DNA of 62,538 nt, filler included, from Nemertoderma westbladi (GCA_032718475.1; 3 parts of 3 records of this genome joined end to end with filler, not necessarily neighbours in it); one strand, 5' to 3'; positions 21,962 to 62,325 are shown, counted from the whole stretch's first letter. Notes: generated by a model not told the origin, from the letters alone. Translations and numbers: made by a program.

Positions 21962-22061
21962 NNNNNNNNNNNNNNNNNNNNNNNNNNNNNNNNNNNNNNN
22001 NNNNNTTAATTAATTAANNNNNNNNNNNNNNNNNNNNNNNNNNNNNNNNNNNNNNNNNNNN
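21962..22061. other. Assembly gap with artificial all-frame stop linker
   Basis: 100 bp: 44 N + TTAATTAATTAA (22006-22017) + 44 N. Confidence 0.98.
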
Positions 22062-25670: not shown

Positions 25671-25736
25671 GCAATAACCTCCATCACAGATGATATAGGC
25701 CTACAGATATTACAGCATTATCAGATATACAGATCT

Positions 25737-27841: not shown

Positions 27842-28687
27842 CGGTGGCTGATTGTGGCCAATTATTTCAATTTTTTTAAATGGTCATCTGGGTGAAAAAC
27901 ATTTATCACCCGGGTTAAAAACCTTTTTCACCCAGGTGAAAACTATCTGGAAATCAGATCTCTCCAGGCACCTGAAGACTAAGTTCTTTCGAGCCACAGT
28001 GGAAAGTGTATTTTATACGGGGGTGAGACCTGGACACTGACTATAAATCACTTGAACAACGAATTGATGGTTGCTACGCAAGACTACTAAGGGCAGCCCT
28101 AAACATCAGCTGGAGACAACACATGACAAACGCCGAGCTTTATGGTACAATACCACCCGTATCAACCACCCTCCGTGAACGCAGATTACGATTCAGTGGG
28201 CACTGCTGGCGAAGTAAAGACGAGGTCATACCAGATCTACTTTTCTGGCAACCAACTCATGGAAAGCGTAGACGTGGACGATATATAGATCAACTTGAAA
28301 GGGATACTGAACTTGGGAGAAACGAAATTGCGACAACTATGGAGAATCGGGAAGCCTGGAAGGATCTCATTTCCACTGTCCGAGTCCGCTCGACCTAGTA
28401 GTCACCCAGGTGAAAAACATTTATCGCCCGGGTGAAAAACATGTACCACATCAGAACTCTGAATACATGTGGTCAGAAATAGGCCTAATATAGAAAGCTA
28501 ATTTTGATACATATTCACTCTTGGCGAATTAATATCTCGACCGCTGTTAATAATCAATTAAGGGAAAGGATCAGGTTACAGTGGCATGTAATTCTAACCA
28601 AAACAATAAACGAAAGACAATAGTTAAACATTTAAATATTTTTCACCATGGTGAAAAATGGAAATAATTGGCCGCAATCAGCCACCG
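27842..28687. mobile_element. TA-flanked non-autonomous DNA transposon (MITE) interrupted by an RTE LINE
   Basis: TIR CGGTGGCTGATTG(T/C)GGCCAATTATTTC at both ends, flanked by TA. Internal caccc(a/g)ggtgaaaa repeats. Confidence 0.8.
27943..28401 (+). mobile_element. 5'-truncated RTE-clade LINE
   Basis: IWKSDLSRHLKTKFFRATVESV..RLRFSGHCWR..LFWQPTHGKRRRGR, a TAGTAG tail and a 15-bp TSD tcacccaggtgaaaa (27928-27942 / 28402-28416). Confidence 0.88.
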
Positions 28688-29320: not shown

Positions 29321-29598
29321 CTAGGCCCGAAACGACAGCAACCAGTTCGCATGTAGAACATGCATTGTTGGATTCCCCGAGGCGGTTCCTTTGAGTTAAA
29401 TCCATCGCTTTTTATTGTCTGTTGTTCCTTCTGTGCCACCGCATCGCTATTTATTGACAGTGGGACTGCGGCATGCCGTGTGGTATAGGGTGGTTCGTCT
29501 TTCCACCCGGTGGTGGAACTGTCACCATCAGTGGGGTGGATCGATGGGGTAGGGGGTGTTCGTGTTGTGGGGGGTGACTGAGGTTGTTGGGTGGCAAC
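29321..29598 (-). CDS. ZRSR2: ZRSR2-like splicing factor, exon D (start of CCCH zinc finger 1)
   Basis: cttctctag|GTT..CCT AG|gtgagt, 278 bp. VATQQPQSPP...GIQQCMFYMRTGCCRFGP(R) resembles CPFYSKTGACRFGDR of ZRSR2. In frame with the upstream exons. Confidence 0.88.
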
Positions 29599-32175: not shown

Positions 32176-32525
32176 ACTTAACTTTTAGGCACTTTCACAC
32201 ACTTTGTTTAATTGCCGCGACTTTTATCTAGCCTTGAATTTTAGTTTGTTTGATCAGACTGCCTGTCTGCTGGTATCTGGTCTGTGCTGTTGTGGTGCGC
32301 TGTTCTGTTCTGTACTGATATAGTTAATACGGAACTAGACTTGAATGTGACTTGATGACAGGATTATATAGGCCCAGTGGATAGTCCGAATCTGCAAACG
32401 AGAAAACAAGGAATCTTTATTTAGCTTGGTTGGTACCGGTACTGGTACAGCAGTAGTACCGCCACTGAAGTTGAAATCACCTGTTCGACTGGATTTGTTA
32501 ACAACAACTGATCAATAATCAGATA

Positions 32526-33032
32526 ATGGCGAGTTACTTGAGAAATATTTCGTTTCTCATTCACAGACTGAATCTATCTCAACCTTTATACCAGCCCACG
32601 TATACACAAACCCGGAGCCTTGCCGGTCGTAAAACTCCCTCGAAACGCCGCATAAGACTCGCCCGAGAACGCCAAGAGGAGGACCGTAAACTAGCGGCGA
32701 CAGCGGCATCGAACCCGTACGCTAAACCTCCGGTAAGGTGCTACCTCTGCGACAACCCACACCTCGAGGTGAACTACAAGAACACCCAACTGTTGAGCCA
32801 GTTCATAGCCCCCCAGACAGGCCGCATAATGGCGGGCCGTGTGACGGGACTGTGTCGGGAGCAACAGGCCCGTGTTCGAACTCATATAATGTGGGCCCGA
32901 CTGTGCGGATACCTCCCTTATATGCACAAGGAAACGGAGTACATGGAGGACAAAGTCTATCACAGCGGCAGTGGTAGATGGACAACATTTACCCGTAAAG
33001 CGCACCCACATAAATTCATTAATAAATCCTAG
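32526..33032 (+). CDS. MRPS18C: Mitochondrial ribosomal protein S18c (bS18m), intronless CDS
   Basis: 168 aa. Arg-rich targeting-like N-terminus, then NPYAKPPVRCYLC..VNYKNTQLLSQFIAPQTGRI..VTGLC..GYLPYMHK, matching the S18c pattern NPY..C.LC..DYKNVQLLSQF..ITGLC. Confidence 0.9.
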   Translation: MASYLRNISFLIHRLNLSQPLYQPTYTQTRSLAGRKTPSKRRIRLARERQEEDRKLAATAASNPYAKPPVRCYLCDNPHLEVNYKNTQLLSQFIAPQTGRIMAGRVTGLCREQQARVRTHIMWARLCGYLPYMHKETEYMEDKVYHSGSGRWTTFTRKAHPHKFINKS

Positions 33033-34205: not shown

Positions 34206-34328
34206 CTCGGATCCTGGTTTAAGGGTTATCCGTGGTGGTTTTGCCTCGCCATTTTCCGTATCATCCGCCCTTCCTCTCGTCGTAGGTTCTGCCGCCTTAG
34301 TTGCTTCCCATTCTTCTATGATTTTTAT
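34206..34328 (-). CDS. ZRSR2: ZRSR2-like, exon C
   Basis: ttgtctttag|ATA..GAG|gtgcca, 123 bp. IKIIEEWEATKAAEP... (cf. RKLKEQWEE). Phase 0/0 fits its neighbours, but the donor is weak. Confidence 0.72.
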
Positions 34329-40224: not shown

Positions 40225-41930
40225 TTATGTATAAAATCGATTAATATTATAGTTAAAAAAGTTAAAATCACTATCACCTCTATCATAATCTTTGACATAG
40301 AATTGTTGCAACTTACTGCATCTTCTCCACACGAAGTCACAAAATTGCTCAATGAAATGCACATCTTCGTTATAGCTGTTCTCATCCGTGACACGACAAC
40401 TTATTACTCCTTTCATATTACCGGCATTGAAAATGTTCTCGAAATCAACAAATGATTGCTCTTCCAGACGGTGGGGTCCAACTAAACCAAATTCAACTAT
40501 AAGTGTAGTCAGAGAGAATAGAGATCGCAATGCCATTACCACACTTCCGTAGCTACATCTCTTCATAACCAGTGTCGAAACTGACTCTGTTAATGGGGTG
40601 CTCTCGACTCTTAATCCGCAATGATGTAGAGCCAATGATTGTAGATTCGGAAACAGTTTAACAGATCTACCAATGACAGGAGACTTCCATGAAGCTGCAA
40701 TTTCAAATACATTATTCCGGATAAAACAACGCCGTTTTGGGCGGCTGTGGTAATGATGTTATGAACAACGTACGAAAACTTATCACAAAGAGTCAACGAA
40801 GATAGTTTCTGGAATTTATTCATTACATTGAATAAACTTTGATCACGTAGCAGATCTGCTTTCGACGGATGGTTCCGCCAATTTAACTTGAGGCTTTCCA
40901 ATGAATCTTTGGAAATAGGAATAACAAACTCATTAAGGGTATCAACCATAGACACACTGGTGTGGAGACCGCGAAGAATATATCGGTTGTAAAGATTGAA
41001 ATTGGCGAAGTTTAATCCGATTTTATGAAGGTCGCATTCCGTCAGGTTGAATTGTTGGTCCCTAGTTAATATGTTGAGTAATTCCATAGACATGTTTGTG
41101 ACTATGGAAACATTGGGATATTTTAAAAGGAAGTTATCAAATCTTTTAATCATTTCCCCTGTAGAAAAGTTGGGAATGTTAATGCTTATTCTTTCCAGCT
41201 TTTTCATTTCGGGCAGGAAATTGGTAGAAAATAAGCTGTAATCAGTAGAACAATAACTCGCGACGTGGAGATTTACCAGATTAGGGCAACAGCGAGCAAT
41301 ACCTTTTACAGTACTGGAACTGAGACTCGTACCAGAGATGCTTAAGGAAGTGAGTTGAGGGAACACAACGGATTGCGCTAAAACTTCATTCAAGTCTGTA
41401 AAACCGGATGTATCGAGAGTCTCCAATGCAGCGGCCATCTTAGGAAGCCAACTTACTAAAACCGGGATGATATCAGAAGGGAACTCGTCTAGAAAGAAGT
41501 CATCAATAATAACGTTGACAGGCCACTGAGGCAGCATACAATCCCAAGGGAAGATACATGAATACGTTTCCATAATACCTTTCAAGGTTGGTGTGTCTGT
41601 ATGCTCCATTTTAGATTCATTACTTATCGATAATTCGTTATGTAACAACTTCAGCTGGTTGAATGCGATGATGTAGGAATGAAGATAGAACTTCCATAGA
41701 TTGTTGCGGAGTTTGGGAGCCAACCTTTTCAGCCACTGTGAGACAGATGTCCAATGGTCACTCTCTGCACTATCAGAATAATTGTTGTCCCATTTCTTTC
41801 GTTCAGCTGTTACAATACTGTTAACCAACAATCGAGTCAGATTGACAATACCGATTTCTTGGAGCGACAATAATCGACAGTTCTCTCGGAGTATAACGGG
41901 TCCTTCCCCTAAACATTTACTGGAGTACAT
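40225..41930 (-). CDS. Intronless leucine-rich-repeat protein with one apparent 1-nt frameshift near 40651-40653 (sequencing error or young pseudogene)
   Basis: The 439-aa ORF has LRRs (LETLDTSG, FPQLTSLSISGT, CCPNLVNLHVA, FQKLSSLTL). The next frame continues as FPNLQSLALHHCGL..LFSLTTLIV..CSKLQQFYV to the stop at 40225. The N-terminal LLSLQEIG is BC-box-like (inference). Confidence 0.75.
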
Positions 41931-44599
41931 CGTTAGATAATTATGCAGCTTCTGGGGGTAGATTTAACGCAGAAGTAGGCCTACTTACCGCTACGTACGT
42001 GTACATAGGTTTTTAAATAATTTTTTAATTATAGGTACAGGTAGTTTGATTTATTTATCTGTTTATCGTATCTTTACCATATAATAAGTGTTGACATCGC
42101 CTGGAGTGGAGTTTGGAACTGGTTTATTCCCAAACCCCGTACATCCATACGGTCTCAGCACTTATCCTTATACCTTATCTACTGTTACTGTTCCTACTGT
42201 TACTGCTACTGTTATTGTTCCACAGTTTGGTGTAGTATGATATGATAGTACAGTACAGATGTAATCTATCTAACTTAGGCGATGCTTTGAAGACGACACC
42301 GATGAAGCACATCTCTGCGCCAGCCCCTCCAGCGTATGCAATCCGACATAGCACATCCATTTTAGCACCAGTCGAAATGCTGCGCCGAACGTGTTCGGCG
42401 ACCTTATATAACTTTCAAAAGGACAGACCTTACCTTACTACAGCTTGACAACGCATTCAGATCTGAATCATTCTAAAATCTAACGGCAGCCAAGCCAAGT
42501 ACAACTGTAGTACAATCGCAGTCGTCCTACCTCTGACAACGTATTCCAGTAATAATGCTCAACTAGCCATTCATTAAATGAATCTAATATATAAATAACG
42601 TCGTGAAAATAATGTTCCATTTAAAAATAAAATTACTGTACGTATTACATGTTAAATAACGTGGAACATATTTTCACTGTGATCTCGATTCTTTATTAAC
42701 CTCGCTCTGCGCTCGGTAAATAAAATACCGAGTATAGCAGTCAAAATAATATTCTACATTATACTACCATGCAATAAATAATTACTACTTTTACCGCATT
42801 GTAAAGGATAATGACACTAAATATACTGTTGCTAGGTAATCGAATCCCCACAAAAGAGTTGGCAAGGGTTATCCAATATCCATCACTATCGATGGGAGAA
42901 CTGAAGTCGACTGAAAAGTGAAATCCTGGTATTCTTCAAATGGGCGCTTTGGTGTGGATGAGCTATAACATCATGAACATGAAAAATTACCCCCAGATCG
43001 CACGTATCCCCTGGGTGAACATTTCAAAGAACACATTTAGGACTTCGGCTGTAATAATATCACCTATTAAATTACTAACGTATTCCAGTAAATAATAATA
43101 TTACAAATACTAGAGTATGTAAGAGAATGTGCAACACGGTAGAACTCCAACTCGCGGGATGTTGCATTGATAACAGATAGAATTAATACACATTCGTTCA
43201 CGTTCGTTAATGTTCTACACCTGGTAAATATAATAGCCAAAGCGATGTTGTCAATAACAACCTCAATAATATCAAACAATAACTGGAAAACAAGCAGCGC
43301 TTTATTTCCCCAGAATTTCCCCATTATTTGAGTAAGTAACGATAATTGTACAAAGGGGCCATAAATAAGGGATATAAATCTAATTATCTTAGGCCGATAT
43401 GTAAATGTCAATATCCCTCCTCCATATCGGTTAAATCCGAAATAAGTTTAATTTTAAATAAAAGCACTCACGAGTGTTGGAATACTTTAATATTAATTAA
43501 ATATTTTTATAAGGTACCTTTTTGGGCTGGTGGACTCTTCTATCGGGAATACACTTTTTAGATTTAGCTCTTTGGGGCATCTTTCTTTGCCATTTATTCA
43601 ATTGTTTTATATTTAAAATGTATAATTAATCTGTTTTTATCTTTAATTTAACAAGATTTTAATATAGCCGCTGGAGGCGTAAGTCCGATGATAAATTAAA
43701 ATTAAAAAAATATGAAATTACCAAAAAATACCAAAGTCAGCAGTTTATGTGAAACTTTAGCAAGTTTATAATAAATTAATGTTCCTAAACGACATGAAAG
43801 TGTGATCACACTCAGCCTTATGTTGTAACTTGTAATTGCCGTCAGACATGAGACCTGTTCGAAATCTTGAGCACGACAACCCGAACGGAACTGTTAGTAC
43901 ATTCCCTGTAAGCCCGTATCATTGTCAGGAATAATAATATTGCGATAATCAATCGACTGATAACACAGGATTCAAGGGGCCTATTTTGCCACCAGACGCC
44001 CCACCGCAGCGCAAGTTTGATTTATGTTTTGATGTTACTAGCTAAATTTGAGTTACGATTCTAAAGTTGCACAAATTGTTTGTTAGTAAACGTCATTGAA
44101 GTTAAAAGCGCGAACAGAAGGGTAGCACGAACTTAGTTCCTATTGAAACGAATTTAGTTCCAAAATAAATTTTATAAAGCGAACTTGGTTCTAATCGGGG
44201 CGAACTTAGTTATAATCCCAGAATATCAAAACGAATTTGGTTCCAGTGGTGGCGAATTTGGTTCCAATGTTTCAATCTGGGGCGAGCCACGAAGTAGGCT
44301 ACGCCTTTGAAGAAATATAGTATCAATATTCAGTATGTCTTTATCTTTCACTAAATTTCGGTTCATTAGATCATGAAAATTCTGGTCGATCCTCCACTGT
44401 AACTATACGTTAGTTACCTTTACCTTATATGGGATGGTAAACAGTTTAAAGCAATTGGATAACTCAACTCGCATATGGCATACTTTATATTATACTAATA
44501 TTAATGATATTTACTATCTTGTATGACAACCTCGTACTAAACTCCTGTCTGTCTTACTATCTGCAAATAGTAAGTGAAAGCCAAACAGACAATAATTAC

Positions 44600-44716
44600 C
44601 TCATCTTCATTCTTCCTCCTGATTATCTCCTGTTGCCATAGGAACTGTTGCTGAGCAACGCGTTCTCTTTCCAACCATTGCTGGTGTTGGCGCCTACTTT
44701 CTATTTCTTCCGACAT
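44600..44716 (-). CDS. ZRSR2: ZRSR2-like, exon B
   Basis: catttag|ATG..GAG|gtaatt, 117 bp. MSEEIESRRQHQQWLERERVAQQQFLWQQEIIRRKNEDE resembles ERQRLHEEWLLREQKAQEEF. Confidence 0.88.
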
Positions 44717-44773
44717 CTAAATGAGTAAAGAATGGACACAACCTAGTAATAGTATGTATGAGCTAATACACTT

Positions 44774-46088
44774 AGTTCCAAAACGTTTTTCTTGAATTCC
44801 AAAACGTACCTGGTTAAGTTCCAAAACGTTTTTCTTGAGTTCCAAAACGTACCTGGTTAAGTTCCAAAACGTTTTTCTTGAGTTCCAAAACGTACCTGGT
44901 TAAGTTCCAAAACGTTTTTCTTGAATTCCAAAACGTACCTGGTTAAGTTCCAAAACGTTTTTCTTGAGTTCCAAAACGTACCTGGTTAAGTTCCAAAACG
45001 TTTTTCTTGAGTTCCAAAACGTACCTGGTTGAGTTCCAAAACGTACCTGTTTAAGTCCCAAAACGTACCGGTACCTGGTTAAATTCCAAAACGTACCTTG
45101 TTAAGTCCCAAAACGTACCTGGTTAAGTTCCAAAACGTACCTGGTTAAGTTCCAAAACGTACCGGTACCTGGTTAAATTCCAAAACGTACCTTGTTAAGT
45201 CCCAAAACGTACCTGGTTAAGTTCCAAAACGTACCGGGTTGAGTTCCAAAACGTACCTGTTTAAGTCCCAAAACGTACCGGTACCTGGTTAAATTCCAAA
45301 ACGTACCTTGTTAAGTCCCAAAACGTACCTGGTTAAGTTCCAAAACGTACCTGGTTAAGTTCCAAAACGTACCTGGTCAAGTTCCAAGACGTACCTGGTT
45401 AAGTTCCAAAACGTTTTTCTTAAGTTCCAAAACGTACCTGGTTGAGTTCCAAAACGTACCTGGTTAAGTCCCAAAACGTACCTGGTTAAGTTCCAAAACG
45501 TACCTGTTTAAGTCCCAAAACGTACCGGTACCTGATTAAATTCCAAAACGTACCTTGTTAAGTCCCAAAACGTACCTGGTCAAGTTCCAAAACGTACCTG
45601 GTTAAGTTCCAAAACGTACCTGTTAAGTTCCAAAACGTACCTTGTTAAGTCCCAAAACGTACCTGGTTAAGTCCCAAAACGTACCTGGTTAAGTTCCAAA
45701 ACGTACCTGGTTAAGTTCCAAAACGTACCTGGTTAAGTTCCAAAACGTACCTGGTTAAGTTCCAAGACGTACCTGGTCAAGTCCCAAAACGTACCTGGTT
45801 AAGTTCCAAAACGTACCTGGTTAAGTTCCAAAACGTACCTGGTTGAGTTCCAAAACGTACCTGGTTAAGTCCCAAAACGTACCTGGTTGAGTTCCAAAAC
45901 GTACCTGTTTAAGTCCCAAAACGTACCTGGTTAAGTCCCAAAACGTACCTGGTTAATTTCCAAAACGTACCTGGTTAGGTTTCAAAAACTACCTGGTTAG
46001 GTTCCAAAACGTACCTGGTTAAGTTCCAAAACGTACCTGGTTAAGTTCCAAAACGTACCTGGTTAAGTTCCAAAACGTACCTGGTTAA
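44774..46088 (-). repeat. 22-bp tandem array made of the ZRSR2 exon A splice-donor junction, ~60 units
   Basis: Minus-strand unit TTAACCAG|GTACGTTTTGGAAC: the last 8 exon nt plus the first 14 intron nt. The first unit is the real donor at 46081/46080. Confidence 0.93.
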
Positions 46089-46201
46089 TGTCCGACTCTT
46101 TGTGTCCCGGTAACTGAGGTACAAGGTATCTTCTCTGCGCTAGCCTTTGTCGTATTAATTTACGGCGCATTTTCTTCCAATGTTTTTTGTACTCTTTTCG
46201 A
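46081..46201 (-). CDS. ZRSR2: ZRSR2-like, exon A (first coding exon not located)
   Basis: ttttttttag|T CGA..CAG|gtacgt, 121 bp. RKEYKKHWKKMRRKLIRQRLAQRR.. resembles HKKYRAALKKEKRKKRRQELARLR. Confidence 0.85.
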
Positions 46202-47681
46202 CTAAAAAAAAACGTAAAAAAAAGCGTTAGAAAATTTCGACGAATTACATATGGTAAATAATTATGTGGTAATATTATTTAGTGCTACAAAACATCGCCT
46301 GAGTTTATTTTCACAATGCTCGGGAATAACATAACGTTCTCATAATGATTATGGATGGGCTAATGTTTATCAATGGGCCAAAAATGGTTCCTTAGTGGCC
46401 AAAAATGACATCCATTTTCGCACCACAGTTTTCGAACAATGGGGTTTGTGCGCGAAAAAAATGTTGGGTTAGAAACAATTAAATAAGGGGTAACACGGTG
46501 CCCTGAATCAAGAGGCGGGGTCTGTTTTTTGTAAAAACACGAGGACACGGTCTAAATGGCGGGTTTAAGTAAGCCCGGGAAACCTATTTTGAAAATCGAC
46601 TGTGATTGGATGCTACATATTTAACGTCACTACGCAGTGGTCCGATAATTTTATATATTGGTTTCTATGGACGGTGATTTTAGATCCATTCAATTACAAA
46701 TTTAATCTCAATTATTTCACACGTGGTTTATATCAATTGAAAGCTGAGAGTGTTGTGCGTCTTTTACCACTACAAATTAATTAAATTCATGATGAGGAAC
46801 ATTGATAAAATGCTGTGTGCAAATTTAATTATTTATTACAAATAATATTATTTAAATAAATTATGTTTACGTTTTCATAAATTCTGGCCCAAATTATGTG
46901 CGGCTATTTCATTTTAAATGCGTCGATTTTGCCCTGCAACAAATAATTATTATTAATAATTAAATAATTCAATATAATTAATAATTTTTTAATAATAAAC
47001 ATTAATAATTTAATAATTCAAATTTAATTGCGTCAACCGTAATTTCTAACAAGACGTGATAAAGACAATGATATATTATTATCGATACATTTTTTTTATC
47101 GAAATTGCAAATTGTCCCGTTCACGGCCGAATATCACGGTAACAAGCAACCATGTTACTGGTAAACCTATAAAGCCTTCCAATCTTGCCTATGCTTAATA
47201 ACCATAATAACGAACCTGCCTATTAATAGGCCAGGGTAGTTATTGTCAAGAGTTGAGCTGTTCAAAAACACGATGTGGTTATGTGTGTGTGTATGTATAT
47301 ATGTATAACCATCCAATATCTCAAAAACTCAAGCAGGTACGCAAAAATTTTAATAACAAACTCTACATAAATTTTGGTTGCGCACAAGACTGTATATTTT
47401 TTATGACGTTTCGATCACAGGGTCACTGAAAAATAGCGGCTTTGAAAATTTAAAGTCAAATTTCACCGATTTCAACTCGTCGAGTATGCACCAACTTTTC
47501 TATTTGGGCTATTCAGTCATTTGAGCAACATATTTGAGCCTCAGAATCTTGTCAAATATCGCCAATCTCGCACAGAACGTCGCCAAAATTTGTTAGTCCG
47601 GCAAAAAAACGCACAAATTCGTCTAAAAGAGTAAATTATTGGTTGCAGAATAATATGATTCAACTAGAAAAGCCAGTAAGC

Positions 47682-47781
47682 NNNNNNNNNNNNNNNNNNN
47701 NNNNNNNNNNNNNNNNNNNNNNNNNTTAATTAATTAANNNNNNNNNNNNNNNNNNNNNNNNNNNNNNNNNNNNNNNNNNNN
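47682..47781. other. Assembly gap with artificial all-frame stop linker
   Basis: 44 N + TTAATTAATTAA (47726-47737) + 44 N. Confidence 0.98.
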
Positions 47782-50700
47782 GAATATAATACGTCGTAGT
47801 GTGTTTTTAGGCTATAAGCGGCGTTTTTTCATGTTACTTCCTACAGAACCAGTTAAAAGGTTATAACTTTCGAGGAGACAGTGCCAGTGACTTGAGAAAG
47901 TGTGAGACAATTGGGGTTACTATTCCCAATTTGTACACAGTGTTACAACTCAGAAAACACAGGGCTTCCAGAGTTATTTAACTATATTCGAATATATTAC
48001 GTCGTAGTGTGTTTTTAGGCTATAAGCGGCGTTTTTTCATGTTACTTCCTACAGAACCAGTTAAAAGGTTATAACTTTCGACGAGACAGTGCCAGTGACT
48101 TGAGAAAGTGTGAGACAATTGGGGTTACTATTCCCAATTTGTACACAGTGTTACAACTCAGAAAACACAGGGCTTCCAGAGTTATTTAACTATATTCGAA
48201 TATATTACGTCGTAGTGTGTTTTTAGGCTATAAGCGGCGTTTTTTCATGTCACTTCCTACAGAACCAGTTAAAAGGTTATAACTTTCGACGAGACAGTGC
48301 CAGTGACTTGAGAAAGTGTGAGACAATTGGGGTTACTATTCCCAATTTGTACACAGTGTTACAACTCAGAAAACACAGGGCTTCCAGAGTTATTTAACTA
48401 TATTCGAATATATTACGTCGTAGTGTGTTTTTAGGCTATAAGCGGCGTTTTTTCATGTTACTTCCTACAGAACCAGTTAAAAGGTTATAACTTTCGACGA
48501 GACAGTGCCAGTGACTTGAGAAAGTGTGAGACAATTGGGGTTACTATTCCCAATTTGTACACAGTGTTACAACTCAGAAAACACAGGGCTTCCAGAGTTA
48601 TTTAACTATATTCGAATACATTACGTCGTAGTGTGTTTTTAGGCTATAAGCGGCGTTTTTTCATGTTACTTCCTACAGAACCAGTTAAAAGGTTATAACT
48701 TTCGACGAGACAGTGCCAGTGACTTGAGAAAGTGTGAGATAATTGGGGTTACTATTCCCAATTTGTACACAGTGTTACAACTCAGAAAACACAGGGCTTC
48801 CAGAGTTATTTAACTATATTCGAATATAATACGTCGTAGTGTTTTTAGGCTATAAGCGGCGTTTTTTCATGTTACTACCTACAGAACCAGTTAAAAGGTT
48901 ATAACTTTCGACGAGACAGTGCCAGTGACTTGAGAAAGTGTGAGACAATTGGGGTTACTATTCCCAATTTGTACACAGTGTTACAACTCAGAAAACACAG
49001 GGCTTCCAGAGTTATTTAACTATATTCGAATATATTACGTCGTAGTGTGTTTTTAGGCTATAAGCGGCGTTTTTTCATGTTACTTCCTACAGAACCAGTT
49101 AAAAGGTTATAACTTTCGAGGAGACAGTGCCAGTGACTTGAGAAAGTGTGAGACAATTGGGGTTACTATTCCCAATTTGTACACAGTGTTACAACTCAGA
49201 AAACACAGGGCTTCCAGAGTTATTTAACTATATTCGAATATATTACGTCGTAGTGTGTTTTTAGGCTATAAGCGGCGTTTTTTCATGTTACTTCCTACAG
49301 AACCAGTTAAAAGGTTATAACTTTCGACGAGACAGTGCCAGTGACTTGAGAAAGTGTGAGACAATTGGGGTTACTATTCCCAATTTGTACACAGTGTTAC
49401 AACTCAGAAAACACAGGGCTTCCAGAGTTATTTAACTATATTCGAATATATTACGTCGTAGTGTGTTTTTAGGCTATAAGCGGCGTTTTTTCATGTTACT
49501 TCCTACAGAACCAGTTAAAAGGTTATAACTTTCGACGAGACAGTGCCAGTGACTTGAGAAAGTGTGAGACAATTGGGGTTACTATTCCCAATTTGTACAC
49601 AGTGTTACAACTCAGAAAACACAGGGCTTCCAGAGTTATTTAACTATATTCGAATACAATACGTCGTAGTGTGTTTTTAGGCTATAAGCGGCGTTTTTTC
49701 ATGTTACTTCCTACAGAACCAGTTAAAAGGTTATAACTTTCGACGAGACAGTGCCAGTGACTTGAGAAAGTGTGAGATAATTGGGGTTACTATTCCCAAT
49801 TTGTACACAGTGTTACAACTCAGAAAACACAGGGCTTCCAGAGTTATTTAACTATATTCGAATATAATACGTCGTAGTGTGTTTTTAGGCTATAAGCGGC
49901 GTTTTTTCATGTTACTTCCTACAGAACCAGTTAAAAGGTTATAACTTTCGAGGAGACAGTGCCAGTGACTTGAGAAAGTGTGAGACAATTGGGGTTACTA
50001 TTCCCAATTTGTACACAGTGTTACAACTCAGAAAACACAGGGCTTCCAGAGTTATTTAACTATATTCGAATATATTACGTCGTAGTGTGTTTTTAGGCTA
50101 TAAGCGGCGTTTTTTCATGTTACTTCCTACAGAACCAGTTAAAAGGTTATAACTTTCGAGGAGACAGTGCCAGTGACTTGAGAAAGTGTGAGACAATTGG
50201 GGTTACTATTCCCAATTTGTACACAGTGTTACAACTCAGAAAACACAGGGCTTCCAGAGTTATTTAACTATATTCGAATATAATACGTCGTAGTGTGTTT
50301 TTAGGCTATAAGCGGCGTTTTTTCATGTTACTTCCTACAGAACCAGTTAAAAGGTTATAACTTTCGAGGAGACAGTGCCAGTGACTTGAGAAAGTGTGAG
50401 ACAATTGGGGTTACTATTCCCAATTTGTACACAGTGTTACAACTCAGAAAACACAGGGCTTCCAGAGTTATTTAACTATATTCGAATATATTACGTCGTA
50501 GTGTGTTTTTAGGCTATAAGCGGCGTTTTTTCATGTTACTTCCTACAGAACCAGTTAAAAGGTTATAACTTTCGAGGAGACAGTGCCAGTGACTTGAGAA
50601 AGTGTGAGACAATTGGGGTTACTATTCCCAATTTGTACACAGTGTTACAACTCAGAAAACACAGGGCTTCCAGAGTTATTTAACTATATTCGAATATAAT

Positions 50701-51159
50701 ACGTCGTAGTGTGTTTTTAGGCTATAAGCGGCGTTTTTTCATGTTACTTCCTACAGAACCAGTTAAAAGGTTATAACTTTCGAGGAGACAGTGCCAGTGA
50801 CTTGAGAAAGTGTGAGACAATTGGGGTTACTATTCCCAATTTGTACACAGTGTTACAACTCAGAAAACACAGGGCTTCCAGAGTTATTTAACTATATTCG
50901 AATATATTACGTCGTAGTGTGTTTTTAGGCTATAAGCGGCGTTTTTTCATGTTACTTCCTACAGAACCAGTTAAAAGGTTATAACTTTCGACGAGACAGT
51001 GCCAGTGACTTGAGAAAGTGTGAGACAATTGGGGTTACTATTCCCAATTTGTACACAGTGTTACAACTCAGAAAACACAGGGCTTCCAGAGTTATTTAAC
51101 TATATTCGAATATATTACGTCGTAGTGTGTTTTTAGGCTATAAGCGGCGTTTTTTCATG
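47782..51159. repeat. 208-bp satellite, ~16 near-identical copies, truncated by the gap
   Basis: Period measured from 47782 to 47990. Internal inverted repeats aaaggttataacttt and aattggg..cccaatt. Confidence 0.95.
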
Positions 51160-51270
51160 ATCTAGCTAATGTCATGGGTGAAAGGGAGTTGTGGCGGTGC
51201 AATTTTGTTGACAAGCCGGCACAGCATTCTTAAAAATGCAGCTGCAATGCAGCATGCCGATCCTAGTAGT
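51158..51270 (+). mobile_element. RTE LINE 3'-end fragment
   Basis: Nearly identical to 60058-60170 (gatctagc..ttcttaaaaatgcagctgcaatgcagcatgccgatcctagtagt). Confidence 0.9.
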
Positions 51271-53168
51271 GTATGGCTGGCCGCGAGATCTGGAGGCGCT
51301 ATGTTGCTGGGTCCGCCGACACTGTGTATGGCTGGCCGCAAGATCTGGAGGCGCTATGTTGCTGGGTGCGCCAGCACTGTGTATGGCTGGCCGCGAGATC
51401 TGGGGGCGCTATGTTGCTGGGACCGCCGGCACTGTGTGTGGCTGACCGTGAGATCTGGGGGCGCTATGTTCAATTCAATTCAATTCAATATATATTTTCC
51501 AAATGCTTAACAAATGCTTAACAAATGATACAATAAATTGCACAATAATTACTGTACAATATATATTGTAAATACGTATTATAAAGTAAATTATAAAGTA
51601 AATGGGGGATTTAGCACAGGACAGGACACCAGCGAATAGCTGTAATAGCTAGTAGCGTGCTGGTGCCCTGGGGGGGGGGGGGGGGGGGGGGGGGGTACGT
51701 TACGTTTGCTACTAGTGTTACATGATATAATTTTAATATACATAGATATGAGTATTGAAATTTATATTTATTACTTCGTGCAACACCAATCGTAATACGT
51801 GGACGGACGCTACACTGCCGCCAAGGAAAAACAGGATTTGTATAATAAAACTAATTTAAATTTAAATACTGGATGATTTAATTTTTCGAAGTTGATAATA
51901 ATGGAGGAGAATATTGCAAGGTAATTCCAAATATCTATATAGTTTCAAGTAGATATCTCTTAAGATTTTTAGCAAATGTTGATTTGGTTTTCTTTTGTTT
52001 AATTATACGTGGGATAGAATTCCACACGGACGGGCCCCGAAAACTGATGGTTTGTTGCTGGGTCCGCCGGCACTGTGTATGGCTGACCGCGAGATCTGGG
52101 GGCACTATGTTGCTGGGACCACCGGCACTGTGTATGGCTGACCGTGAGATCTGGAGGCGCTATGTTGCTGGGTCCGCCGACACTGTGTATGGCTGGCCGC
52201 GAGATCTGGAGGCGCTATGTTGCTGGGTGCGCCGGCACTGTGTATGGCTGGCCGCGAGATCTGGGGGCGCTATGTTGCTGGGACCGCCGGCACTGTGTAT
52301 GGCTGACCGCGAGATCTGGGGGCACTATGTTGCTGGGACCACCGGCACTGTGTATGGCTGACCGTGAGATCTGGAGGCGCTATGTTGCTGGGACCACCGG
52401 CACTGTGTATGGCTGACCGTGAGATCTGGAGGCGCTATGTTGCTGGGTCCACCGACACTGTGTATGGCTGGCCGCGAGATCTGGAGGCGCTATGTTGCTG
52501 GGTGCGCCGGCACTGTGTATGGCTGGCCGCGAGATCTGGGGGCGCTATGTTGCTGGTACCGCCGGCACTGTGTGTGGCTGACCGTGAGATCTGGGGGCGC
52601 TATGTTGCTGGGTCCGCCGGCACTGTGTATGGCTGGCCGCGAGATCTGGAGGCGCTATGTTGCTGGGTGCGCCGACACTGTGTGTGGCTGACCGTGAGAT
52701 CTGGGGGCTGCTATGTTGCTGGGTCCGCCGGCACTGTGTGTGGCTGACCGCGAGATCTGGAGGCACTATGATGCTGGGTGCGCCGACACTGTGTGTGGCT
52801 GACCGTGAGATCTGGGGGCACTATGTTGCTGGGTGCGCCGACACTGTGTATGGCTGGCCGCGAGATCTGGAGGCGCTATGATGCTGGGTGCGCCGACACT
52901 GTGTGTGGCTGACCGTGAGATCTGGGGGCTGCTATGTTGCTGGGTCCGCCGGCACTGTGTATGGCTGGCCGCGAGATCTGGAGGCGCTATGATGCTGGGT
53001 GCGCCGACACTGTGTGTGGCTGACCGTGAGATCTGGGGGCACTATGTTGCTGGGTGCGCCGACACTGTGTATGGCTGGCCGCGAGATCTGGGGGCGCTAT
53101 GTTGCTGGGTCCGCCGGCACTGTGTGTGGCTGACCGCGAGATCTGGAGGCGCTATGTTGCTGGGACCG
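51271..53168. repeat. 55-bp GC-rich minisatellite interrupted by a LINE tail
   Basis: Unit GCGAGATCTGGAGGCGCTATGTTGCTGGGTCCGCCGACACTGTGTATGGCTGGCC. Confidence 0.93.
51471..52052 (-). mobile_element. 5'-truncated CR1/L2-type LINE 3' end
   Basis: Minus-strand SFRGPSVWNSIPRIIKQKKTKSTFAKNLKRYLLETI* (stop 51935-51937), then a 3'UTR and an (ATTGA)n tail. Confidence 0.75.
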
Positions 53169-53312
53169 CATGCACTGCACCAATACAATCCGATTACCAT
53201 GCATTCCTATATTATAACTTATTTTTCTGTACTAAATCTTCTAACTGTATTAAATATTTAAACTCTTACTCTTTAAACCTCTTACTGTTCGATTGTTTAA
53301 TAGTGTACTTAC

Positions 53313-53604
53313 TGACAGCCACATAATGGATAACATATTATCCTTATCTTCTAGTGGACATTTCATCGCCAATGATTCTCCAACATATGCATCCGTGACT
53401 GTAGCTTTTTCCTCCAGCTTTTCTATCTTAAATATATTGTAGGATATAATGTTGGAAAAGGAAATTCCATATTGATTCTCTGCTTTGCATTGGTATTCGG
53501 AGATTCCCTCTTTATTCTTATCTTCGTTCAACTTAAAATAATCACCGCCGCCGGTAGTAATATCTGTAGCCGACAATTCAACCCCATTCCTAAGTAAGGT
53601 CACA
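53313..53604 (-). CDS. Ig-superfamily cell-surface/secreted protein (L1CAM/neuroglian/contactin-like), exon 3
   Basis: ttttgtttcag|T GTG..TCA|gtaagt, 292 bp. VTLLRNGVEL..EYQCKAENQYGISFSN..VGESLAMKCP..SIMWLS covers the end of Ig1 and the start of Ig2. Confidence 0.85.
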
Positions 53605-56600
53605 CTGAAACAAAATAATACATCTTCAACAACCACCGAATATCCTAAGTAAGGTCACAATGAAATAAAATAATACATCTTCAACAACCACCGAATATCC
53701 TAAGTAAGGTCACACTGAAATAAAATAATACATCTTCAACAACCACCGAATATCCTAAGTAAGGTAACACTGAAATAAAATAATACAACTTCAACAACCA
53801 CCGAATATCCTAAGTAAGGTCACACTGAAACAAAATAATACATCTTCAACAACCACCGAATATCCTAAGTAAGGTCACACTGAAACAAAATAATACATCT
53901 TCAACAACCACCGAATATCCTAAGTAAGGTCACACTGAAATAAAATAATACATCTTCAACAACCAAAGAATATCCTAAGTAAGGTCACACTGAAATAAAA
54001 TAATACATCTTCAACAACCACCGAATATCCTAAGTAAGGTCACAATGAAATAAAATAATACATCTTCAACAACCAAAGAATATCCTAAGTAAGGTCACAA
54101 TGAAATAAAATAATACATCTTCAACAACCACCGAATATCCTAAGTAAGGTCACACTGAAATAAAATAATACATCTTCAACAACCACCGAATATCCTAAGT
54201 AAGGTCACAATGAAATAAAATAATACATCTTCAACAACCACCGAATATCCTAAGTAAGGTCACACTGAAACAAAATAATACATCTTCAACAACCACCGAA
54301 TATCCTAAGTAAGGTCACACTGAAATAAAATAATACATCTTCAACAACCAAAGAATATCCTAAGTAAGGTCACACTGAAATAAAATAATACATCTTCAAC
54401 AACCACCGAATATCCTAAGTAAGGTCACAATGAAATAAAATAATACATCTTCAACAACCAAAGAATATCCTAAGTAAGGTCACAATGAAATAAAATAATA
54501 CATCTTCAACAACCACCGAATATCCTAAGTAAGGTCACACTGAAATAAAATAATACATCTTCAACAACCACCGAATATCCTAAGTAAGGTCACAATGAAA
54601 TAAAATAATACATCTTCAACAACCAAAGAATATCCTAAGTAAGGTCACAATGAAATAAAATAATACATCTTCAACAACCACCGAATATCCTAAGTAAGGT
54701 CACAATGAAATAAAATAATACATCTTCAACAACCACCGAATATCCTAAGTAAGGTCACAATGAAATAAAATAATACATCTTCAACAACCACCGAATATCC
54801 TAAGTAAGGTCACACTGAAATAAAATAATACATCTTCAACAACCAAAGAATATCCTAAGTAAGGTCACACTGAAATAAAATAATACATCTTCAACAACCA
54901 CCGAATATCCTAAGTAAGGTCACAATGAAATAAAATAATACATCTTCAACAACCACCGAATATCCTAAGTAAGGTCACAATGAAATAAAATAATACATCT
55001 TCAACAACCAAAGAATATCCTAAGTAAGGTCACAATGAAATAAAATAATACATCTTCAACAACCACCGAATATCCTAAGTAAGGTCACACTGAAATAAAA
55101 TAATACATCTTCAACAACCACCGAATATCCTAAGTAAGGTCACAATGAAATAAAATAATACATCTTCAACAACCAAAGAATATCCTAAGTAAGGTCACAA
55201 TGAAATAAAATAATACATCTTCAACAACCACCGAATATCCTAAGTAAGGTCACAATGAAATAAAATAATACATCTTCAACAACCACCGAATATCCTAAGT
55301 AAGGTCACAATGAAATAAAATAATACATCTTCAACAACCACCGAATATCCTAAGTAAGGTCACACTGAAATAAAATAATACATCTTCAACAACCACCGAA
55401 TATCCTAAGTAAGGTCACACTGAAATAAAATAATACATCTTCAACAACCAAAGAATATCCTAAGTAAGGTCACAATGAAATAAAATAATACATCTTCAAC
55501 AACCAAAGAATATCCTAAGTAAGGTCACACTGAAATAAAATAATACATCTTCAACAACCACCGAATATCCTAAGTAAGGTCACACTGAAATAAAATAATA
55601 CATCTTCAACAACCACCGAATATCCTAAGTAAGGTCACAATGAAATAAAATAATACATCTTCAACAACCACCGAATATCCTAAGTAAGGTCACAATGAAA
55701 TAAAATAATACATCTTCAACAACCAAAGAATATCCTAAGTAAGGTCACACTGAAATAAAATAATACATCTTCAACAACCACCGAATATCCTAAGTAAGGT
55801 CACAATGAAATAAAATAATACATCTTCAACAACCACCGAATATCCTAAGTAAGGTCACAATGAAATAAAATAATACATCTTCAACATCCAAAGAATATCC
55901 TAAGTAAGGTCACACTGAAATAAAATAATACATCTTCAACAACCACCGAATATCCTAAGTAAGGTCACAATGAAATAAAATAATACATCTTCAACAACCA
56001 AAGAATATCCTAAGTAAGGTCACACTGAAATAAAATAATACATCTTCAACAACCACCGAATATCCTAAGTAAGGTCACACTGAAATAAAATAATACATCT
56101 TCAACAACCAAAGAATATCCTAAGTAAGGTCACAATGAAATAAAATAATACATCTTCAACAACCAAAGAATATCCTAAGTAAGGTCACACTGAAATAAAA
56201 TAATACATCTTCAACAACCACCGAATATCCTAAGTAAGGTCACACTGAAATAAAATAATACATCTTCAACAACCACCGAATATCCTAAGTAAGGTCACAA
56301 TGAAATAAAATAATACATCTTCAACAACCAAAGAATATCCTAAGTAAGGTCACACTGAAATAAAATAATACATCTTCAACAACCACCGAATATCCTAAGT
56401 AAGGTCACACTGAAATAAAATAATACATCTTCAACAACCACCGAATATCCTAAGTAAGGTCACAATGAAATAAAATAATACATCTTCAACAACCACCGAA
56501 TATCCTAAGTAAGGTCACAATGAAATAAAATAATACATCTTCAACAACCAAAGAATATCCTAAGTAAGGTCACACTGAAATAAAATAATACATCTTCAAC

Positions 56601-58822
56601 AACCACCGAATATCCTAAGTAAGGTCACAATGAAATAAAATAATACATCTTCAACAACCAAAGAATATCCTAAGTAAGGTCACACTGAAATAAAATAATA
56701 CATCTTCAACAACCACCGAATATCCTAAGTAAGGTCACACTGAAATAAAATAATACATCTTCAACAACCAAAGAATATCCTAAGTAAGGTCACAATGAAA
56801 TAAAATAATACATCTTCAACAACCACCGAATATCCTAAGTAAGGTCACAATGAAATAAAATAATAGATCTTCAACAACCACCGAATATCCTAAGTAAGGT
56901 CACAATGAAATAAAATAATACATCTTCAACAACCACCGAATATCCTAAGTAAGGTCACACTGAAATAAAATAATACATCTTCAACAACCAAAGAATATCC
57001 TAAGTAAGGTCACACTGAAATAAAATAATACATCTTCAACAACCACCGAATATCCTAAGTAAGGTCACACTGAAATAAAATAATACATCTTCAACAACCA
57101 CCGAATATCCTAAGTAAGGTCACACTGAAATAAAATAATACATCTTCAACAACCACCGAATATCCTAAGTAAGGTCACAATGAAATAAAATAATAGATCT
57201 TCAACAACCACCGAATATCCTAAGTAAGGTCACAATGAAATAAAATAATACATCTTCAACAACCACCGAATATCCTAAGTAAGGTCACACTGAAATAAAA
57301 TAATACATCTTCAACAACCAAAGAATATCCTAAGTAAGGTCACACTGAAATAAAATAATACATCTTCAACAACCACCGAATATCCTAAGTAAGGTCACAC
57401 TGAAATAAAATAATACATCTTCAACAACCACCGAATATCCTAAGTAAGGTCACACTGAAATAAAATAATACATCTTCAACAACCAAAGAATATCCTAAGT
57501 AAGGTCACAATGAAATAAAATAATACATCTTCAACAACCACCGAATATCCTAAGTAAGGTCACAATGAAATAAAATAATACATCTTCAACAACCACCGAA
57601 TATCCTAAGTAAGGTCACAATGAAATAAAATAATAGATCTTCAACAACCAAAGAATATCCTAAGTAAGGTCACACTGAAATAAAATAATACATCTTCAAC
57701 AACCACCGAATATCCTAAGTAAGGTCACACTGAAATAAAATAATACATCTTCAACAACCACCGAATATCCTAAGTAAGGTCACAATGAAATAAAATAATA
57801 GATCTTCAACAACCACCGAATATCCTAAGTAAGGTCACAATGAAATAAAATAATAGATCTTCAACAACCAAAGAATATCCTAAGTAAGGTCACACTGAAA
57901 TAAAATAATACATCTTCAACAACCACCGAATATCCTAAGTAAGGTCACAATGAAATAAAATAATAGATCTTCAACAACCACCGAATATCCTAAGTAAGGT
58001 CACAATGAAATAAAATAATAGATCTTCAACAACCAAAGAATATCCTAAGTAAGGTCACACTGAAATAAAATAATACATCTTCAACAACCACCGAATATCC
58101 TAAGTAAGGTCACAATGAAATAAAATAATAGATCTTCAACAACCACCGAATATCCTAAGTAAGGTCACAATGAAATAAAATAATACATCTTCAACAACCA
58201 CCGAATATCCTAAGTAAGGTCACACTGAAATAAAATAATACATCTTCAACAACCACCGAATATCCTAAGTAAGGTCACACTGAAATAAAATAATACATCT
58301 TCAACAACCAAAGAATATCCTAAGTAAGGTCACAATGAAATAAAATAATACATCTTCAACAACCACCGAATATCCTAAGTAAGGTCACAATGAAATAAAA
58401 TAATAGATCTTCAACAACCACCGAATATCCTAAGTAAGGTCACAATGAAATAAAATAATACATCTTCAACAACCACCGAATATCCTAAGTAAGGTCACAC
58501 TGAAATAAAATAATACATCTTCAACAACCAAAGAATATCCTAAGTAAGGTCACACTGAAATAAAATAATACATCTTCAACAACCAAAGAATATCCTAAGT
58601 AAGGTCACACTGAAATAAAATAATACATCTTCAACAACCACCGAATATCCTAAGTAAGGTCACACTGAAATAAAATAATACATCTTCAACAACCACCGAA
58701 TATCCTAAGTAAGGTCACACTGAAATAAAATAATACATCTTCAACAACCAAAGAATATCCTAAGTAAGGTCACAATGAAATAAAATAATACATCTTTAAC
58801 AACCAAAAAATATCCTAAGTAA
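53588..58822 (-). repeat. 55-bp tandem array made of the exon-3 splice-acceptor junction, ~95 copies
   Basis: Minus-strand unit tattcggtggttgttgaagatgtattattttatttcAG|TGTGACCTTACTTAGGA: 38 intron nt plus 17 exon nt. The last unit is the real acceptor. Confidence 0.95.
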
Positions 58823-58829
58823 TCTAAGA

Positions 58830-60170
58830 TCTCGATTGCTGCAAAGCTATACAATAGAATTCTATTAAATCGCATCAGGGATCCCATTGAGAGACTGCTC
58901 CGTGGAAATCAGAATGGGTTCCGTAAAGGTCGTGGGACCATGGAGCCCATTTTGGCACTTAGAAGGATAATTGAAGAGTTATCAAAAAAGAAAGACAGGC
59001 ATCTGGCTGTTATCTTTGTTGACTTCTTCAAGGCCTTTGATTCAATCTCTCGCTCACGTATGTTCAGCATACTTTCATTATATTGGATTCCTGATGAAAT
59101 TATTGCAGCAATAAGATCAGTATACGATGGTTCGACAACATTTGTGTCTACTGTTGACGGTGACACAGAACCATTTGAAGTGTCATGGGGCGTCCTCCAG
59201 GGAGACACACTTGCACCATTCTTGTTCATAATTGTTGTTGACTATGTTTTACGCATGTCCTTAGATCATCATAATGATGATGGGGTGATGATAACTTCAC
59301 CATCTGGCTCCAGAAGTCGAGGAAATCCTGCCAAGTACCTAACTGATCTAGACTTTGCTGATGACTTAGGAGTACTCTCAGAATCACTAGAGGGAGCCCA
59401 ACGGCTCCTCAGTTCATTAGAGCATGCTGCTTCTAGTGTTGTTCTTTTTATTAACTCCAGAAAGACCAAAATTTTGACAGTTAACTTTGAAAGTCCTCAG
59501 CAAGTCTCTGATCGGATGAGCATAAGCTCAAAAGATGGTATGCTTGAGCATGTGGATGACTTCTGTTACCTGGGATCATGGATCCGGAAGTCAGGTGAGG
59601 ACCTTCGAATACGTAAGGGGAAGGCATGGGCAGCCTTGAATAGGCTTTCCAGGATTTGGAAGTCACCGAGAATTAATCGGAAACTTAAGGTCCGATTATT
59701 TAGAGCAGCAGTAGTTCCAGTACTCCTCTATGGGATTCCATGCTGGGCTCTAACTGCTGAGGACACCAAATCTCTGGATGGCACATTCACAAAAATGCTA
59801 CGCCGGGTTCATTGTGTCAAGTACAATGCACACATCTCCAACCAGACACTATATAACATTGGAGGTGTCTCATTGGTTCCCCCTAGCTTGACTCTAGAAC
59901 AAAATCGCCTCCGCTTTGCAGGACATTGCTTTCGCCGTGAGGACCAGCCAGTGCATAATCTTGTACTTTGGCAGCCTCATGGAGTGAATAAGCATGGTGG
60001 ACAGCCCATGACTTTCTTGAGACGCATCTTAAAGGACACTGGCCTTGAAGATGCGGATGATCTAGCAAATGCCATGGGTGATAGGGAGTTGTGGCGGTGC
60101 AATTTTGTCGATAAGCCGGCACAGCATTCTTAAAAATGCAGCTGCAATGCAGCATGCCGATCCTAGTAGT
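58830..60170 (+). mobile_element. 5'-truncated RTE-clade LINE with an uninterrupted RT reading frame
   Basis: SIAAKLYNRILLNRI..QNGFRKGR, FVDFFKAFDSI, GVLQGDTLAPFLF, LDFADD, FCYLGSW, RLRFAGHC. Stop at 60133, short 3'UTR and TAGTAGT tail. No TSD. Confidence 0.95.
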
Positions 60171-60552
60171 GACTCACTTGCTACGTTCGTTGCTGTTGTA
60201 GAGTAAGCTCAGGGCTCTGTGGCAACCCTAGAGTGCAGTGCTTCCTACGTTCGGTGTGGTTGTAGAGTAAGCTCAGGGCTCTGTTGCAACCCTAGAGTGT
60301 AGTAGTGACTCACTTGCTACGTTCGGTGCGGTTGTAGAGTAAGCTCAGGGCCTTGTTGCAACCCTAGAGTGCAGTAGTGACTCACTTGCTACGTTCGATG
60401 CGGTTGTAGAGTAAGCTCAGGGCTCTGTTGCAACCCTAGAGTGCAGTAGTGACTCACTTGCTACGTTCAGTGCGGTTGTAGAGTAAGCTCAGGGCGTTGT
60501 TGCGACCCTAGAGTGCAGTAGTGACTCACTTGCTACTTTCGGTGCGGTTGTA
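60165..60552 (-). repeat. 72-bp tandem array made of the exon-2 splice-donor junction, ~5 copies
   Basis: Minus-strand unit TACAACCGCACCGAA(A/C)GTAGCAA|GTGAGTcactactgcactctaggg..cttactc: 23 exon nt plus 49 intron nt. Confidence 0.92.
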
Positions 60553-60659
60553 ATCACACCCGACTCTTTCTTTCATTGTTATTTTATATTCATTATTGTA
60601 TATGAGAGCCGATGACCTCCAGTGATCCGGTACGATTGATACTTTCACTGGCGCCTCTC
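60530..60659 (-). CDS. Ig-superfamily protein, exon 2
   Basis: ttttctttccag|GA..AA|gtgagt, 130 bp. EAPVKVSIVPDHW..ERVGCDYNRTESS. Phase 1/2 joins exon 1 and exon 3 in frame and supplies the Ig1 B-strand Cys. Confidence 0.82.
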
Positions 60660-61026: not shown

Positions 61027-61144
61027 CTTCTAACTTTATAGACGAACCATCTCTATAATTAATGATAAACGATTCGCTTACAATAAAGCCCAAGTTCAAA
61101 ATAACAACTGCAACGATACAAATACACTTACAGATTAATCTCAT
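61027..61144 (-). CDS. Ig-superfamily protein, exon 1 (signal peptide)
   Basis: MRLICKCICIVAVVILNLGFIVSESFIINYRDGSSIKLE G|gtaagt, a hydrophobic leader with a phase-1 donor. An alternative in-frame ATG lies at 61165. Confidence 0.8.
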
Positions 61145-61566
61145 CTTCCAATAATTCTCAAACATCTCGGGCGTAGGCCTATCGCTATTTGTATTCAATC
61201 AGTTGAAGAACACGGTTAGAAGGCAAACAGATTAACTTAAACTTTGGTATAGACCCCACGTTGGTATTTGGTACGTTGATAATGACAACAAATTATGGTG
61301 GACTTTATTTAAATGTTATTTTTTAATTAGTTTGGCTTTTCTTGATGCCATAAAAAATTACGGTGCAATAAATAGTTTATAATCACCAGTGAACATTTCA
61401 AAACACCAGAACCAGAAAACACAACCATTAGACTTCTAACGGACTTCTAACTGCATGTATGTGATTTTCAACAAAATTACGCTTCAACAACACCATGACT
61501 TTCGCAAGAAAGGCCAGTGTCCTTTAAGAAGCTTCTCAAGAAAGTGAATAAGTTCTAAATAAGCAA

Positions 61567-62325
61567 TTAAATCGTATCAGAGATCCCATTGAGAGACTGC
61601 TCCGTGGAAATCAGAATGGGTTCCGTAAAGGTCGGGGGACCATGGAGCCCATTTTGGCACTTAGACGGATAATTGAAGAGTTATCAAAAAAGAAAGACAG
61701 GCATCTGGCTGTATCTTTGTTGACCTCTTCAAGGTCTTTGATTCAGTCTCTCGCTCACGTATGTGCAGCATACTTTCATTATATGGGATTCCTGATGAAA
61801 TTATTGCAGCAATCAGATCAGTATACGATGGTTCGACAACATTTGTGTCTACTGTTGACGGTGACACAGAACCATTTGAAGTGTTATGGGGCGTCCTCCA
61901 GGGAGACACACTTGCACCATTCTTGTTCATAATTGTGGCATACTCCTCCTATACGGGAGCCAATGATGGGCTGCTTGATGATTCCATGGCCTGGTTCACT
62001 GTGTCAAGTACAATGCACACATCTACAACCAGCCACTATATAGTATTGGATGTATCCAATTATTGATCCCCTAAGCTTGAGACTTGAACAGAACCGCCTC
62101 CGCTTTGCAGGATAATTATTTCGCCGCGTGGAACAGCTTGTGCACAATCTTATGCTTTTTCAGGCTCATTGAGACAATAAGATGGTGGATCTGGATAGAC
62201 CCCGATTTTCTTTAGACGCCTCCTCTTAAAGGACCACTGGCTTTGAAGATGGGGATAATCTCGCGAATGTGAAGGGGGATAATAGTGAGTTGTGGCGGCG
62301 CAAATCTGTCGACAAGCCGACATAG
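61567..62325 (+). mobile_element. Degraded, internally deleted copy of the same RTE family
   Basis: Close match to 58866-59236, then jumps to sequence resembling 59790-60120. Frameshifts and stops present. Confidence 0.9.

Follow-up and report, generated by a model that had tools for sequence, protein, structure and literature searches.

Three tandem arrays in the window (the whole stretch of DNA analysed, 62,538 nt) are best read as 'mirages', minisatellites of introns in which the original unit reaches across the border of an exon. They are most likely neutral products of a genome in which short tandem repeats are amplified throughout, and would have persisted because the splice site next to the exon likely continues to be preferred. 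The phenomenon is already described, in the amphioxus mirages and the human F7 VNTR, and the present arrays are real, partly transcript-confirmed and unusually long. In amphioxus, mirage minisatellites of donor and acceptor types occur in Adh3 and in the globin genes BflGb6 and BflGb9 (accessible text of PMC3087553), troponin C and PGBD5 also carry them (accessible text of PMC3902484), and lancelet mirages are reported in both sources to leave splicing normal. The 37-bp VNTR of human F7 intron 7 contains 5–9 identical donors, only the most upstream of which is used, while the others work once it is mutated (accessible text of PMC1557585).

The window is animal DNA of about 39% GC outside the arrays, with transposon remains and many tandem arrays. 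Tandem Repeats Finder (TRF) returned 53 rows over its full length, from which 11 larger array families were tallied, covering 19,027 of 62,538 nt (30%). Their units are unrelated in sequence, the longest common word being 4–9 nt among the seven units compared, and all copy numbers given here are counts in the assembly. The junction arrays reported in a preliminary description all exist, with head-to-tail units of 22, 55 and 72 bp (TRF), and the terminal unit of each holds a minus-strand splice site beside an open exon. The real sites are the 22-mer donor at 46081/46080, the 72-mer donor at 60530/60529 and the 55-mer acceptor at 53605/53604. The arrays had been called independent; two of them share one intron, so that two introns are concerned.

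The 22-bp donor array (44774..46088, minus strand, ~59 units) lies in a gene designated gene A. TRF delimits it at 44797-46088 with 58.0 copies, and self-BLAST extends it to 44774. The array occupies 1,307 of the 1,364 intron nucleotides, leaving a 57-nt non-array remainder (44717..44773, minus) with the real acceptor, a separate site 57 nt past the array end; without the array, the intron would be shorter than ~100 nt. The last bases of the 121-nt internal exon (46081..46201, minus, phase 2 to 0) are those of the terminal 22-mer unit, with the donor CAG/GTACGT, and the next exon has 117 nt (44600..44716, minus, phase 0-0). There are 51 GTACGT motifs in the array, 41 of them preceded by CAG (1 real, 40 decoys), and these 40 copies match the real donor exactly from -3 to +6. 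Seven units lack the GT and are mostly grouped at the far end.

Together with 34328-34206 and 29598-29321, the exons 46201-46081 and 44716-44600 form one frame with 0 stops. The third (34206..34328, minus) is a predicted candidate exon with a weak donor, and the fourth (29321..29598, minus), likewise a candidate, ends midway through a CCCH zinc finger, of which it holds the first half (Pfam zf-CCCH, E=0.0055, a score under the curated threshold). Homologue searches with gene A gave no matches, and PDB searches gave none or a weak CCCH match. The window yielded neither the first exon, expected from a loose end of the contig described below, nor the exons for the RRM and the second finger farther downstream. 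Judged by its motifs, gene A is probably a ZRSR2/U2AF1-like splicing factor.

Of six short-read sequencing runs, none of them recorded as RNA, four (X1–X4) supplied contigs that were compared with the regions 46035-46340 and 58765-60250; X1, X2 and X3 represent two studies, one of which may be the source of the window. A single 505-nt contig of X4 (record 22) lies on 46081-46203 with loose spliced ends on both sides, and its letters past 46081 match 44687-44716 at 29/30. The contig thus jumps from 46081 to the exon at 44716, indicating that the message is spliced exactly at the terminal 22-mer donor. The label of X4, 'DNA?', was a guess; the absence of cover in the intron and a LINE depth rising toward the 3' end are what an RNA run would show, and the message of the spliced contig could equally be read from a processed copy. 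None of the X4 contigs covers intronic 22-mer units; contigs drop rare forms, and a single contig is no proof that the decoys go unused, nor does it exclude their rare use. In X1, X2 and X3, the region 46035-46340 shows go-back joints inside the 22-mer repeat, with summed depth on the units of ~1034, 226 and 313, respectively; the exon itself drew 9.6, 23 and 21. Such depths are not copy numbers. One X3 contig with 4 exon differences crosses from the exon into the array, indicating that a second haplotype carries it.

The other two arrays lie at opposite ends of one 6,925-nt intron in gene B. The predicted exons 61165-61027, 60659-60530 and 53604-53313 chain into 187 aa with 0 stops. The predicted first coding exon (61027..61165, minus) has an ATG, a signal-peptide-like hydrophobic stretch (the Kyte–Doolittle 12-residue window peaks at 3.08 at residue 14) and a strong phase-1 donor. 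The second (60530..60659, minus, 130 nt, phase 1 to 2) would encode the N-terminal half of an Ig domain, has its last 23 nt inside the terminal 72-mer unit and ends at the donor CAA/GTGAGT. The third (53313..53604, minus, 292 nt, phase 2 to 0) would supply the rest of the Ig domain and the start of the next, and its first 17 nt are inside the terminal 55-mer unit; it matches Pfam Ig_2 (E=8e-4) and titin, contactin and DSCAM, with 54 multi-domain hits. Against a profile built from 96 domains of these 54 Ig hits, Cys34 of the joined exons aligns gap-free to the first Cys, and adding exon 60659-60530 left the score no higher than that of shuffles of this exon, 80 of 300 of which reached it. The 55-mer and 72-mer junctions are accordingly described as predicted, from open frame, matching phase, strong sites and Ig homology. 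The preliminary description had every unit straddling a real boundary and every terminal copy functional; the spliced contig bears out both statements for the 22-mer donor, and for the other two arrays they stand as predictions.

Donor mirage, LINE and acceptor mirage together make up the whole gene B intron, whose donor and acceptor units are unrelated to each other. The 55-bp acceptor array (53588..58822, minus, 95.2 copies by TRF, ~5.2 kb) comprises 95 units of two interleaved kinds, 49 with TTTCAG (1 real, 48 decoys) and 46 with TTTCAT. The AG is thus intact in 48 of the 94 decoy copies, and the copy adjoining the real acceptor is an AT copy without it. The 72-bp donor array (60165..60552, minus) has 6 donor positions, 1 real and 5 others, of which 4 are intact decoys and 1 is deleted. 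Summed depth on one 55-mer unit was 2495 in X1 and 1099 in X2, with none in X3 and X4, where gaps in cover are uninformative; the depth in the 72-mer bin was 9.5 (X1), 266.5 (X2), 482.1 (X3) and 0 (X4, where the gap is likewise uninformative). The dozens of near-identical decoys claimed earlier are present as 40 exact copies in the 22-mer and 48 with an intact AG in the 55-mer array; the AG is missing from 46 of the 95 55-mers, and intact decoys number only 4 in the 72-mer array. Decoy signals are partly decayed in all three arrays (7 units in the 22-mer, 46 in the 55-mer, 1 in the 72-mer), and the decayed acceptors and donors have spread within the arrays.

Such arrays could have begun with the duplication of 22–72 nt through slippage, or through repair, between short words of similar sequence. 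In the 22-mer array, the sequence at the joint of the units, GGAACTTAA, is similar to GGACATTAA in the exon, and these may be the duplication words. Nested variant patterns suggest that later expansion proceeded by slippage or unequal exchange. Wherever the first donor or the last acceptor is used, geometry leaves all other copies intronic, so that one-sided growth needs no junction-targeted process. Extension of the arrays only into the intron, which the preliminary description had singled out, follows from this duplication geometry once the terminal site is used and is no special feature. The terminal site is used in the 22-mer array and would be used in the 55-mer and 72-mer arrays, as in F7 intron 7 and the lancelet mirages. 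In translation, every decoy of all three arrays meets a stop within 11 codons: the 22-mer decoy reads VRFGT and stops after 5 codons, the 72-mer decoy reads K and stops after 1, and the 55-mer decoy stops at codon 11. Since decoy products carry stops, the transcripts would probably be degraded, lowering the cost of errors, and the array may cost little. The alternative put forward with the preliminary description, that junction arrays are the exon-overlapping expansions that survive selection, fits this account.

The 22-mer array resembles the F7 VNTR in that its first unit spans the exon–intron boundary and is followed by identical downstream pseudo-donors and, by the one contig, in that the terminal donor is used, as only the most upstream donor is in F7 (PMC1557585, accessible text). 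F7 differs in having 5–9 sites, donors only, with pseudo-sites tested by mutation in the same source, whereas here there are 41 sites and also an acceptor array, read from sequence. An unusual spliceosome that ignores decoys, as had been supposed, is unneeded, given that human F7 uses only the first of 5–9 identical donors and that lancelet mirages are reported to leave splicing normal. The F7 donor experiments do not explain the choice of an acceptor past 48 intact upstream AGs; for the 55-mer acceptor, this choice may come from exon definition by the downstream donor. Compared with amphioxus, the arrays reach ~59 and 95 copies (5.2 kb), as against 3 and 6 units in BflGb6 (accessible text of PMC3087553), and one intron is made solely of donor mirage, LINE and acceptor mirage. 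The host lineage also differs, since the single-exon FUT8 of the window (23826-25700) is 40–54% identical to the 120 animal homologues listed, which span phyla, include the lancelet and contain no close relative.

With the present arrays, the oddity known from the lancelet mirages and the human F7 VNTR appears in a further animal lineage and at a much greater length, and the 95-copy acceptor array offers a natural test of 3' splice-site choice between first-AG scanning and exon definition. Such arrays can enlarge an intron of ~100 nt more than 10-fold and mislead gene annotation. A lineage-wide survey of junction arrays was not found in the largely open-access literature searched, and the accessible parts of PMC10078293 and PMC12783039 hold nothing specific on such arrays. 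Intron gain by AGGT tandem duplication (the Rogers model, cited in the accessible text of PMC3087553) was considered and set aside: it needs both intron ends from one exonic unit, whereas the acceptor of the 22-mer intron is separate from the array and the donor and acceptor units of the gene B intron are unrelated.

A different origin, rather unlikely in our judgement, is a junction-biased mutation process, in which breaks linked to transcription or splicing, R-loops, or a change in GC where exons end would start tandem duplications preferentially at splice junctions, with selection acting on them afterwards. It draws support from the arrays found on junctions, 3 of 11 against 0.16–0.54 expected under uniform placement, an expectation that assumes 12–40 junctions in 43 kb of non-array DNA. 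The corresponding P(>=3) is 0.0006–0.018, and P(>=2) is 0.012–0.10 with the shared intron counted once. Both ends of the single gene B intron are affected, which also favours such a process, and the lancelet authors considered mirages possibly general in the lancelet lineage (accessible text of PMC3087553). Nevertheless, the pattern itself was the reason for choosing the window, the number of junctions is an assumption, and short ancestral introns raise the expected overlap; in an intron of less than ~100 nt without its array, such as that of the 22-mer with its 57-nt remainder, a repeat can hardly arise without touching a junction. A crude splice-site scan, which listed 35 candidate exons, placed none of the other 8 array families in the window on a junction; it picked up the junctions of the 22-mer and the 72-mer, gave one antisense artefact at the 55-mer, and missed two exons of the gene A and gene B chains, where donors are weak. 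The in-window enrichment over random placement is hence only suggestive, and some modest bias may be real. The special amplifier at junctions proposed earlier appears unneeded, as geometry suffices, minisatellites occupy 30% of the window and the crude scan put none of the other eight arrays on a junction; nothing here points to R-loop or break repair. Slightly less probable again is the broader form of the idea, in which tandem amplification is truly junction-biased genome-wide in this isolated lineage, whole introns come to be made of copies of their own splice sites, and exon definition alone selects the last AG in spite of 48 intact copies ahead of it. The arrays would matter more only if such a genome-wide mutational bias were real, in which case they would provide natural titrations, by the hundred, of how splice sites compete, and a route by which introns grow and slide that could be measured.

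The LINE in the gene B intron (58828..60170, plus strand) is 5'-truncated, encodes reverse transcriptase (Pfam RVT_1, E=4e-23) and has an (AGT)n tail; it is antisense to gene B and joins the 55-mer and 72-mer arrays without a target-site duplication. That LINE insertion or repair machinery made the arrays, by reiterative copying of target flanks, is very improbable. The suggestion comes from two fragments of the same family lying exactly between unrelated arrays without target-site duplication: this LINE and a 115-nt 3' fragment (51157..51271, plus) found by self-comparison, which is wedged between a 208-mer and a GC-rich 55-mer array. Against it stands the anatomy of the junctions. The LINE tail overlaps AGTAG within a 72-mer unit, the 5' end meets an internal 55-mer copy via a 5-nt filler, the distal intron part of the 72-mer sits on that side of the LINE which faces the exon, and letters derived from an exon directly adjoin the LINE 5' end. 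Because each end of the LINE falls within an internal copy of a repeat, both arrays would predate it, and the LINE was rejected as their origin. There is also no LINE beside the 22-mer, the family fragments at 61566-62325 and 14852-14902 have no arrays beside them, and the family is of very high copy number (loose ends at 58828 and 60170, summed depth ~1e6), with 4 of 8 family ends in arrays as against 30% array cover. A LINE-free joint was absent among the 15 joints listed (491 more exist), a result uninformative either way where the multi-copy LINE swamps the signal. With the arrays as older minisatellites, the LINE may have landed in the 72-mer by tail microhomology after they had formed, with the middle of the intron lost and the arrays fused. 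The 208-bp array (16 copies) and the GC-rich 55-bp array (two blocks) together span 47782..53177 (no strand assigned) downstream of the last gene B exon found; the left end of the former falls in an assembly gap, and neither was placed on a junction.

Still less credible is a functional reading, in which decoy or recursive (AG/GT) sites tune expression through unproductive splicing and decay, like splicing-factor autoregulation. The 22-mer unit does contain YAG/GT, including the AG/GT motif of recursive-splicing ratchet points, gene A is presumably a splicing factor, and all decoys bear stops. However, splice signals decay freely inside the arrays, the X4 contigs (which drop rare forms) leave the intronic units uncovered, and the F7 pseudo-sites remain silent (PMC1557585, accessible text). 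An assembly artefact or unreal gene B exons, for which assembly gaps at 47682-47781 and 21962-22061, the predicted status of these exons and the shuffles reaching the Ig score could be cited, is the least likely reading, given that two studies have contigs with recurring go-back joints and unit variants, that X1 and X2 show multi-copy depth on the 55-mer unit, and given structured unit variation together with three phase-matched open exons with a signal-like start and Ig matches.

Elsewhere in the window, a mitochondrial-type S18 ORF lies at 32502-33032, and a fourth mirage is possible at a 43-mer (15031).

A possible fourth mirage, that is, a minisatellite whose unit straddles an exon-intron boundary, is offered by the 43-mer array at 15031-16587. 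On the minus strand, a candidate exon-like stretch of 51 nt (15011-15061), open in phase 1 and followed by the donor CAG|GTAACA, has its putative acceptor within the terminal 43-mer unit, and the AG is missing from the internal copies of the array. The crude splice-site scan of the window did not pick out this stretch. Putative acceptor sites were also seen at 3583 (-) and 32189 (+), 16-18 nt past the ends of a 46-mer and a 12/13-mer array, respectively, close to the array ends and with no unit straddling the boundary. In a 208-bp array (47782-51159; 99% identity), the left end of which is missing and falls in a gap, the unit includes a plus-strand short open frame together with a sequence resembling an acceptor.

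Two LINE fragments of the same family, at 51157-51271 and 58828-60170, each lie exactly between two unrelated tandem arrays, and target-site duplications are absent at both; by appearance they resemble LINE-patched deletions. Two further fragments of this family (61566-62325 and 14852-14902) have no flanking arrays. A distinct LINE-like 3′ fragment at 27960-28400 (+) likewise ends in an AGT tail, and is hosted by a small 22-bp repeat with a target-site duplication of 15 nt. At 51471-52052, the GC-rich 55-mer array is interrupted by an AT-rich insert that terminates in (TTCAA)n and contains a stretch of poly-G; it is probably another retroelement that landed in the array. Long imperfect palindromes at 25742-26315 and 2574-2733 are possibly MITE-like elements.

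The exon joined ahead of 46201 of gene A in the spliced contig from sequencing run X4, upstream of 46203, has no match within the window, and may lie within the gap 47682-47781 or past gene B, the predicted gene with Ig-domain exons; were it located past gene B, gene B would be nested. Around gene A, a single-exon ribosomal S18 ORF (32502-33032, +) and a single-exon LRR-like ORF (40225-41963, -), the latter divided between two frames, are located between predicted exons, and single-exon FUT8 (23826-25700, -) is located downstream of the last gene A exon found; given this placement, the three ORFs may be nested genes or retrogenes.
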